A stretch of 54,525 nucleotides of DNA from a virus (UHGV-0179380); one strand, 5' to 3'; numbered from the stretch's first letter, positions 44,924 through 45,601 are shown. A program made the numbers and translations. The notes: generated by a model from the letters alone, not told the origin.

Positions 44924-45214
44924 TTAATGATAGCGGACTTTATCCAGGGGTTTTTCCCCTAAATGGCGTGGTTGCTTTGCGTGGTAGTAGCTGCCGCTTT
45001 CATTTTCCGTATACCATTTTACTGATCCTTTGCGACGTTCTTTAATGCTATTTGGTTTGCATCTTTCCTCGTTTGCAAATCGAATAGCTTTATCCACATT
45101 GTCTGTTTTATTGATTGCAGGTGATGATTTTCTTTCGTTTTCTCTTTTTATCCTTCTGCGTTCCCTGGCATTCATTTTGCTATCACATTTACCATATATA
45201 ATTGTAACGCTCAT
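44924..45214 (-). CDS. possible N-like antiterminator (arginine-rich motif); start uncertain
   Basis: MNARERRRIKRENERK resembles arginine-rich motif of lambdoid N proteins; first gene downstream of predicted pL. Confidence 0.4.
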   Translation of the reverse strand: MSVTIIYGKCDSKMNARERRRIKRENERKSSPAINKTDNVDKAIRFANEERCKPNSIKERRKGSVKWYTENESGSYYHAKQPRHLGEKPLDKVRYH

Positions 45215-45562
45215 AATCTGATCTCCGTATATCCTTGATGATACTTAATAAAAAATCATCTTCGTTAATTGCCGCACTTCCAGCGGCTGACCAGATTGTT
45301 AATGAGCGGCTTAACATCTTTCAACTAATCCCGCAATCATCGCCGTTCCCGGCGTGACCTTGCTCACTCCAAGCAAGCTGACTCGTCGCCTTGCGTGCGG
45401 TTTCGTGGGGGATGTAACGCTTTAAACACCCCATGCGCCTTGTTATCAGTGCCGCTTTCGGTCCCCCATTGGGGAGTTACTCCACGGTTGACAAGGTGTT
45501 AAGCCTGATTTTTAAAGTGCCAGGAAGCCGCTTTTGTTACCTGCGCCCTTCCTTTGACTCGC

Positions 45563-45601
45563 AATATACGCCCCGTAAAACACCGAGTCAATCCATTTTG
45601 T
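45563..45601 (-). promoter_or_regulatory. pL-like promoter with adjacent motif copy
   Basis: minus strand: CCATTTTGT rc at 45593-45601, -35 TTGACT 45586-45591, 17-bp spacer, -10 TATATT 45563-45568. Confidence 0.6.

Follow-up and report, generated by a model that had tools for sequence, protein, structure and literature searches.

A Gp17-type N-like gene with three putative nut sites, and an optional leader module, in a coliphage of the mEp021 group

Results

The window, that is, the whole stretch of viral DNA analyzed here (UHGV-0179380, 54,525 nucleotides, counted from its first letter), carries on its minus strand a short gene for an N-like protein that is preceded by a long leader. At the DNA level this locus is 98.9% identical to that of Escherichia phage MagusPhagus and 92.5% identical to that of phage mEp021, and the Mexican E. 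coli phages mEp010, mEp515, and mEp021 are 92-96% identical to it. Of 5426 complete E. coli genomes, 35 have a prophage with the locus, always as a single copy. The succession of repressor, N-like gene, kil-like gene, and recombination genes in the window agrees with that of the mEp021 group. The window phage is a temperate coliphage of the mEp021 group (mEpimmI), and its nearest relative is MagusPhagus.

Upstream of the N-like gene, an ortholog of mEp021 gp17, and on the same strand lies a gene for a cI/LexA-type repressor with HTH_3 and Peptidase_S24 domains (45715..46362, minus strand). It is followed by an intrinsic terminator (45692..45709, minus strand), which is also annotated as a terminator in the records of mEp021, mEp010, and other phages. 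Downstream of this terminator an early promoter-like site, TTGACT-17-TATATT, was identified (45563..45591, minus strand), which is sigma-70-like at 10 of 12 positions and the best such site of the region. It is kept in nearly all relatives, whether their leaders are long or short, and the distant relative L059 has an equivalent site, TTGCAT-17-TATAGT. Since the best sigma-70-like site is located at 45591..45563, the gp17 leader is predicted to be about 342 nt long. The gene had been described beforehand as the first one after a predicted pL, with a leader of roughly 350 nt. The promoter-like site and the length of the leader stand, whereas 'pL' holds as an analogy only, because the gp17 side is the rightward operon (nutR1) for the authors of the mEp021 work and includes the Q-like gene. 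A 16-nt motif is common to both divergent early promoter regions (45592-45607, TCCATTTTGTATACTT, and 46435-46450, TCCATTTTGTAAACTT), one copy adjoining the -35 element of the gp17 promoter. Judged by their sequence and position, the two copies are candidate repressor operators.

Beyond gp17, the operon continues with a kil-like ORF, erf, ssb, abc2, methyltransferase genes, nutR2, ninG, and a Q-like gene toward the lysis genes, while the divergent operon on the nutL side comprises an HTH gene and replication genes. The 39-aa ORF located right after gp17 (44774-44893, minus strand) weakly resembles the septation inhibitor Kil of lambda, matching Pfam Lambda_Kil under the cut-off (E = 2e-4) and the PHROG Kil profile with E = 0.0014. 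Its top match is PHROG_34942 (E = 7e-31), a group whose function is unassigned in PHROG. The presence of a Kil-like ORF after an N-like gene echoes the order of the lambda pL operon.

The gp17 ortholog itself (44924..45214, minus strand, stop included) encodes a 96-aa N-like antitermination protein that starts at the ATG at 45214 and begins MSVTIIYGKCDSKMNARERRRIKRENERK. The ORF corresponds to mEp021_17, with 92% protein identity over 96 aa, and is annotated in MagusPhagus as 'anti-termination protein N-like protein'. Only eight amino-acid changes, including S2T, I6M, and M14L, separate the window protein from mEp021 Gp17, and these are allelic differences.

The preliminary description had named two candidate starts, 45214 with a good Shine-Dalgarno sequence and 45175, and had considered the N-terminus ambiguous. 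Both ATG codons are present and the Shine-Dalgarno sequence GGAG is found 8 nt upstream of the first of them (45223..45226, minus strand); the ambiguity, however, is settled at 45214 by the relatives. In an alignment of eight phages, the GGAG is invariant (8/8), as is ATG 45214. In the same alignment only three phages (the window phage, MagusPhagus, and mEp010) have ATG as codon 14 (45175), which is replaced by CTG (Leu) in mEp515, mEp021, mEp044, and mEp013 and by ATA in mEp554. Residues I5 and G8 of the N-terminus are invariant in homologs down to 38%-60% identity, Y7, C10, and S12 are kept except in the most divergent relatives, and four of the seven nucleotide differences between the window and mEp021 in the first 13 codons are synonymous. 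Translation from the internal ATG would give an 83-aa protein that, just like lambda N (MDAQTRRRERR), carries its motif at the very N-terminus, the 13 upstream codons then being part of the leader. This start is nevertheless very unlikely, given that most relatives have CTG or ATA at codon 14, that no Shine-Dalgarno sequence precedes 45175, and that the upstream codons are conserved as protein. Because ATG 45214 and its Shine-Dalgarno sequence are invariant and the N-terminus is conserved, we take the protein to be 96 aa long, with its arginine-rich motif behind a 13-residue extension.

Residues 14-29 of the protein read MNARERRRIKRENERK, and the arginine-rich motif, as read from the sequence, spans N15-K29 (NARERRRIKRENERK; 45128..45172, minus strand). 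N15, A16, R17, R19, R20, R21, K23, and R24 are invariant in six close relatives, and A16, R20, and R24 stay invariant down to 38% identity. A further comparison of relatives gave invariance for R17, R20, and R24 and near-invariance for R19. The residues R17, R19, R20, and R24 of Gp17, which are fully conserved among 48 phages (PMC11893012), are all present in the window protein.

The PHROG_271 profile 'anti-termination protein N-like' matches the window protein over residues 1-95 with E = 4.4e-13 and lambda N with E = 4.1e-23. From the offsets of the two matches, Gp17 residue 14 comes to stand opposite residue 1 of lambda N, which brings the motif into register with lambda N residues 1-16 (lambda MDAQTRRRERRAEKQA); 7 of these 16 residues are identical by eye. 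The likeness to the arginine-rich motif of lambdoid N proteins that had been proposed beforehand is thus borne out by a profile match common to both proteins, with their motifs in register. Direct tests against lambda N were negative. BLASTP of the window protein against lambda N yielded nothing significant (E = 17), Pfam N36 (PF11438) did not match it at E<=1, Pfam N_peptide (PF25694) reached 15.9 bits (E = 0.019) and so stayed under its cut-off of 27.9, and a PDB sequence search with the window protein returned no N chain. When the Gp17 family was compared with a lambda-N family alignment using hhalign, the probability was 6% and only a short C-terminal motif was aligned, namely RKGSVKWYTENESG (Gp17 residues 60-75, window about 44990-45037, minus strand) with RKNQRTWYSKPGERG of lambda. 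The lambda stretch belongs to the C-terminal, RNA polymerase-binding region of N. A C-terminal motif RKxxxxWY...G is possibly common to Gp17 and lambda N, the sequence similarity being weak. As PHROG_271 is shared and the direct lambda N tests are negative, we assign the protein to the Gp17 family, which we place in the broad N-like group PHROG_271 and not in Pfam N36.

Within the Gp17 family, conservation is highest in the C-terminal 35 residues, also when the 38%-identical relative is included. An AlphaFold2 model of the protein is of low confidence overall (mean pLDDT 61.8, pTM 0.26), and a helix at residues 16-30 has the highest pLDDT of the protein. Such a model, with a helical motif, fits the picture of an N-like, largely disordered protein, as far as a prediction of this kind can indicate. 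The family is very narrow: it comprises 31 clusters at 90% identity, a HMMER profile of Gp17 obtained four matches among 1.84 billion representative proteins, and two scans of representative GTDB genomes found no member. In the representative protein library, residues 2203-2250 of a 3778-aa protein (P0032) match positions 35-82 of the Gp17 profile with E = 7.8e-11.

The gp17 leader had been thought capable of carrying a nut site, and a boxA followed by a boxB is indeed located at 45308..45271. The boxA, CGCTCATTAACAAT (45295..45308, minus strand), is of the rrn type and close to the rrn boxA consensus TGCTCTTTAACAA. The boxB hairpin, GCCGC-U-GGAAG-U-GCGGC (45271..45287, minus strand), begins 7 nt downstream of it. 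This 17-nt boxB has a single exact copy in the window, where 0.11 copies would be expected by chance even with 3 mismatches. The boxA and boxB of this site, nutR1, are invariant across the close relatives and identical in mEp021. At the position of nutR1, boxA reads TGCTCTTTAACAAT in mEp044 and mEp554 and TGCTCTTTAATAAT in mEp013; the related loci L050, L051, L057, L058, and L059 also have a boxA there. The nut site accounts for only about 40 nt of the gp17 leader. Between it and the Shine-Dalgarno sequence lies an A/U-rich hairpin, GAUGAU-(12 nt)-AUCAUC (45237..45260, minus strand), which is present in most relatives and missing from the L051-type leader.

At the nutR1 position the boxB stem is GCUAC/GUAGC in L051 and L052, UGCAC/GUGCA in L050, GCAC/GUGC in L057, UCGC/GCGA in L058, and CGCU/AGCG in L059, the leader of a homolog that is only 38% identical. 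The loop is (U)GAAA(U) in all six of these leaders, while the stems change and pairing is kept. In an alignment of eight nut sites, the three innermost boxB pairs are paired in 100% of cases, and two of the three have changed on both sides. Comparison of Gp17 residues 18-33 and of the nutR1 boxB between the window and L050, L051, L052, L057, and L058 reveals at least two matched classes of motif and boxB. Class one combines the motif ...RIKRENERKSS with the boxB loop U-GGAAG-U, class two the motif ...RMKRAAEQDEG with the loop U-GAAA-U, and long as well as short leaders occur with either class. These matched classes suggest that protein-RNA specificity may be co-evolving inside one phage group. 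P22 gp24 and phage 21 N likewise have a motif/boxB specificity pair each. Given its orthology to mEp021 Gp17 (92% identity, same synteny) and a leader nut site with boxB covariation, the candidate N-like protein of the preliminary description can be accepted as such.

Two further putative nut sites were located. The first, nutR2, consists of boxA TGCTCTTTAAAAAT and boxB GCGC-U-GAAA-U-GCGU (37859..37892, minus strand). In the operon that holds nutR1 it sits 7.4 kb further downstream, closely following the DNA methyltransferase gene and preceding the NinG and Q-like genes. The other, nutL, consists of boxA GCTCTTTAAAAAT and boxB UCGCU-GCGA-AGCGA (46527..46559, plus strand), belongs to the divergent operon, where it is found between the repressor gene and the HTH/replication genes, and is conserved in related loci. 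The boxB of nutL and nutR2 (CGCUG..A.GCG) resembles GCGCUGACAAAGCGC, which we take to be the boxB of P22. nutR1, nutR2, and nutL all occupy the positions given for mEp021 (PMC11893012).

The remainder of the gp17 leader contains an optional module of 198 nt (45308..45505, minus strand) that is predicted to fold into a closed multi-branch structure, in which a closing helix (GGCUUAACA.../...UGUUAAGCC) pairs 45505.. with ..45308. A boxA-like sequence, GCACTTTAAAAA (45509..45520, minus strand), lies at its 5' edge; it departs from the boxA pattern by one mismatch and is identical to the boxA of nutR2 and nutL over 11 nt. Five of eight sequenced phages (the window phage, MagusPhagus, mEp010, mEp515, and mEp021) have a segment of about 216 nt here, in place of which the other three (mEp044, mEp013, mEp554) have about 30 unrelated nucleotides. 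The comparison of all distinct leaders comprised 25 long and 10 short ones, and the module is missing in about a quarter of the relatives; all of the more distant relatives have short leaders. On one side of the module lies the boxA-like sequence (GCACTTTAAAAATCAGG) and on the other the real boxA (GCTCATTAACAATCTGG), an arrangement that hints at acquisition by recombination at boxA.

The leader folds with a z-score of -3.75 and the module with one of -2.9, and RNAalifold predicted 61 pairs in the module. Nucleotide diversity is 0.011 in the module. In the flanks, represented by the 54 initial nucleotides of gp17, the 5' leader, and the spacer of the promoter, it is 6-7 times higher (0.07-0.08). 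One helix shows compensatory changes. This helix 8, CUUGCUU-GGAGU-GAGCAAG (45359..45377, minus strand), reads AUCACUU-GGAUU-GAGUGGU in L051, L052, L080, and L164, with three both-side changes and one wobble and with all pairs kept. The other helices of the module are neither supported nor contradicted, because they do not vary.

Searches of the leader against Rfam at permissive thresholds gave no family, the only notable match being an rrn-type boxA inside the Ysr197 model, and a tRNA/tmRNA scan returned none. NCBI PGAP calls no gene in the module across 31 prophages. Phage records annotate small ORFs there, such as a 37-aa ORF (45321..45434, mEp021_16). Of the small leader ORFs compared with PHROG, two had no match and the third reached E = 0.06, so that none was convincing. 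Searches for the module with distant blastn (phages and E. coli genomes), with a 15-mer scan of IMG/VR combined with nhmmer, and with a 20-mer metagenome scan detected nothing outside the mEpimmI group; they recovered the same phage group only, with almost no new variants of the module. Within the window, the search for a second module copy gave nothing above chance, the 13-nt match at 29433 having a chance expectation of about 0.4. A reading of the module as a miniature inverted-repeat element was rejected because there is one copy per genome.

Discussion

Our analysis suggests, with a probability of about 0.9, that the gp17 ortholog and its nut sites form the early processive-antitermination module of a coliphage of the mEp021 group, activity and Nus dependence being taken from the literature on mEp021. 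According to PMC11893012 (section 3.5, citing Valencia-Toxqui et al., 2023, Arch Virol 168:92), Gp17 of mEp021 is an experimentally demonstrated N-lambda-like early antiterminator. Of the three nut sites that it uses, nutR1 precedes gp17, nutL precedes the repressor gene, and nutR2 comes after the methyltransferase gene. The window shares with this system an orthologous protein, the same arginines, nut positions, and gene order, and the repressor type. The mEp phages were isolated as Nus-dependent (PMC11893012), and the rrn-type boxA found here is consistent with such a dependence.

By analogy, once repression is lifted, the promoter at 45591..45563 would transcribe the leader of about 342 nt and then gp17. 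The arginine-rich helix of Gp17 (residues 15-29) would bind the newly transcribed nut RNA at its boxB hairpin, the details of binding being deduced here, and the adjacent rrn-type boxA would recruit host NusB and NusE, with NusA and NusG joining them. The resulting complex would stay on RNA polymerase and read through terminators along the long gp17 operon, and the same would apply from nutL into the divergent replication operon.

Judged by its sequence, the window protein is one that would work like lambda N. In common with lambda N, it is a small basic protein with an arginine-rich motif, encoded by the first gene after a repressor-controlled early promoter, and, as in a lambda nut site, its boxA is followed by a short spacer and a 5-bp hairpin with an A-rich, GNRA-like loop. 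Unlike lambda N, it has the conserved extension of 13 residues ahead of the motif, and there is no Trp at the position that we take to be that of lambda W18. The nut sites differ as well, since the boxA of the window is of the full rrn type (GCUCUUUAACAA), and the boxB loop of nutR1 is U-GGAAG-U instead of the GAAAA of lambda. Moreover, the window has three nut sites, of which two share an operon with the Q-like gene, and the replication genes belong to the other operon.

An arginine-rich motif next to boxB-like RNA could also belong to a protein of opposite effect. Nun of phage HK022, whose gene occupies the same position and whose N-terminus carries an arginine-rich motif of the same kind, terminates transcription instead of antiterminating. 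If the window protein were an exclusion factor of this type, its motif would bind boxB in the RNA of a competing phage and so cause termination or arrest, and the weak direct similarity between Gp17 and lambda N leaves some room for this. However, the phage has three cognate nut sites of its own, the boxB changes together with the motif in the relatives, and Gp17 is reported to antiterminate on the mEp021 nut sites (PMC11893012). We thus regard a Nun-like function as highly improbable. Least probable of all is that the arginine-rich stretch arose by chance in a small basic protein, such as a DNA-binding excisionase or regulator, and that the boxA- and boxB-like sequences are coincidental. Short basic ORFs are common in early regions of phages and no Pfam family matches above threshold, but the PHROG_271 match (E = 4.4e-13), the low chance expectation of boxB (0.11 per window with 3 mismatches), and the covariation of its stem all speak against coincidence. 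The same holds for the retention of boxA and boxB at the same place in a relative that is only 38% identical, and for the experimental work on the ortholog (PMC11893012).

The leader module is probably a functional structured RNA, a view that rests on one covarying helix, strong conservation, and the folding energy. It is possible, though not likely, that it represents a new class of phage leader RNA, acting either as a cis-acting regulator of Gp17 synthesis or of the assembly of the antitermination complex, or as a non-coding RNA processed from the early transcript. The insert could instead be a protein-coding moron, represented by the 37-aa ORF at 45321..45434 (mEp021_16), or neutral junk, in either case with no functional RNA. 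This is compatible with the small ORFs annotated there in phage records, with the three sequenced phages that do without the segment, and with the fact that most of the predicted pairs never vary and are hence uninformative. Yet the variant hairpin of L051 and L052 keeps seven of seven pairs, while the ORF would go from QLAWSEQG to QITWIEWC. In addition, the leader ORFs have no convincing PHROG match and PGAP calls no gene in the 31 genomes, diversity is 6-7 times below that of the flanks, and the folding z-scores are -2.9 and -3.75. A coding or neutral insert therefore seems to us somewhat doubtful, slightly more so than a new class of leader RNA. The mEpimmI paper (PMC11893012) makes no mention of the leader module, which appears to be undescribed so far. 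Structured elements of early leaders that act on RNA polymerase are represented by the put RNA of HK022. This RNA is a conceivable, speculative analogy for the module.

The identification of an N-like protein in the preliminary description is correct and already known, the protein having been experimentally characterized in a 92%-identical ortholog. The window thus contributes one more member of an experimentally characterized system, and for this reason the finding changes little. It confirms that N-type antitermination can be recognized from raw sequence outside the classical lambdoid phages. What is added here are the start codon, the coordinates of three nut sites with comparative support, two motif/boxB classes, the weak similarity to the lambda N C-terminus, and the leader module. 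The two matched classes are usable for studying the evolution of protein-RNA specificity. The leader module, if functional, would be an unrecognized regulatory layer on an N-type switch, and of all the parts it alone might make experimental work worthwhile. The mEpimmI phages are said to equal lambdoid phages in their frequency in the human gut.

Along the minus strand, simple scanning detected terminator-like hairpins at 43163, 40892, 40714, 37609, 33816, and 30189, several of them within ORFs. Terminators t1-t5 have been published for the Gp17 system. The strongest canonical intrinsic-terminator-like hairpins with T runs (37591-37609, 33797-33816, and 30171-30189, minus strand) are situated downstream of nutR2 and of the Q-like gene and are, by position, candidate targets of Gp17- or Q-dependent read-through. 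The hairpin called TERM_2 in mEp021 (window 43163..43144) has a poor T tract and is located inside an ORF for a hydrophobic peptide of 35 aa (43080-43187, minus strand; MKKIAMLSAAVAVAAVYLSASLYITVAIVKLITDM). This locus may be a gene for a small membrane peptide instead of a terminator, or it may be both.
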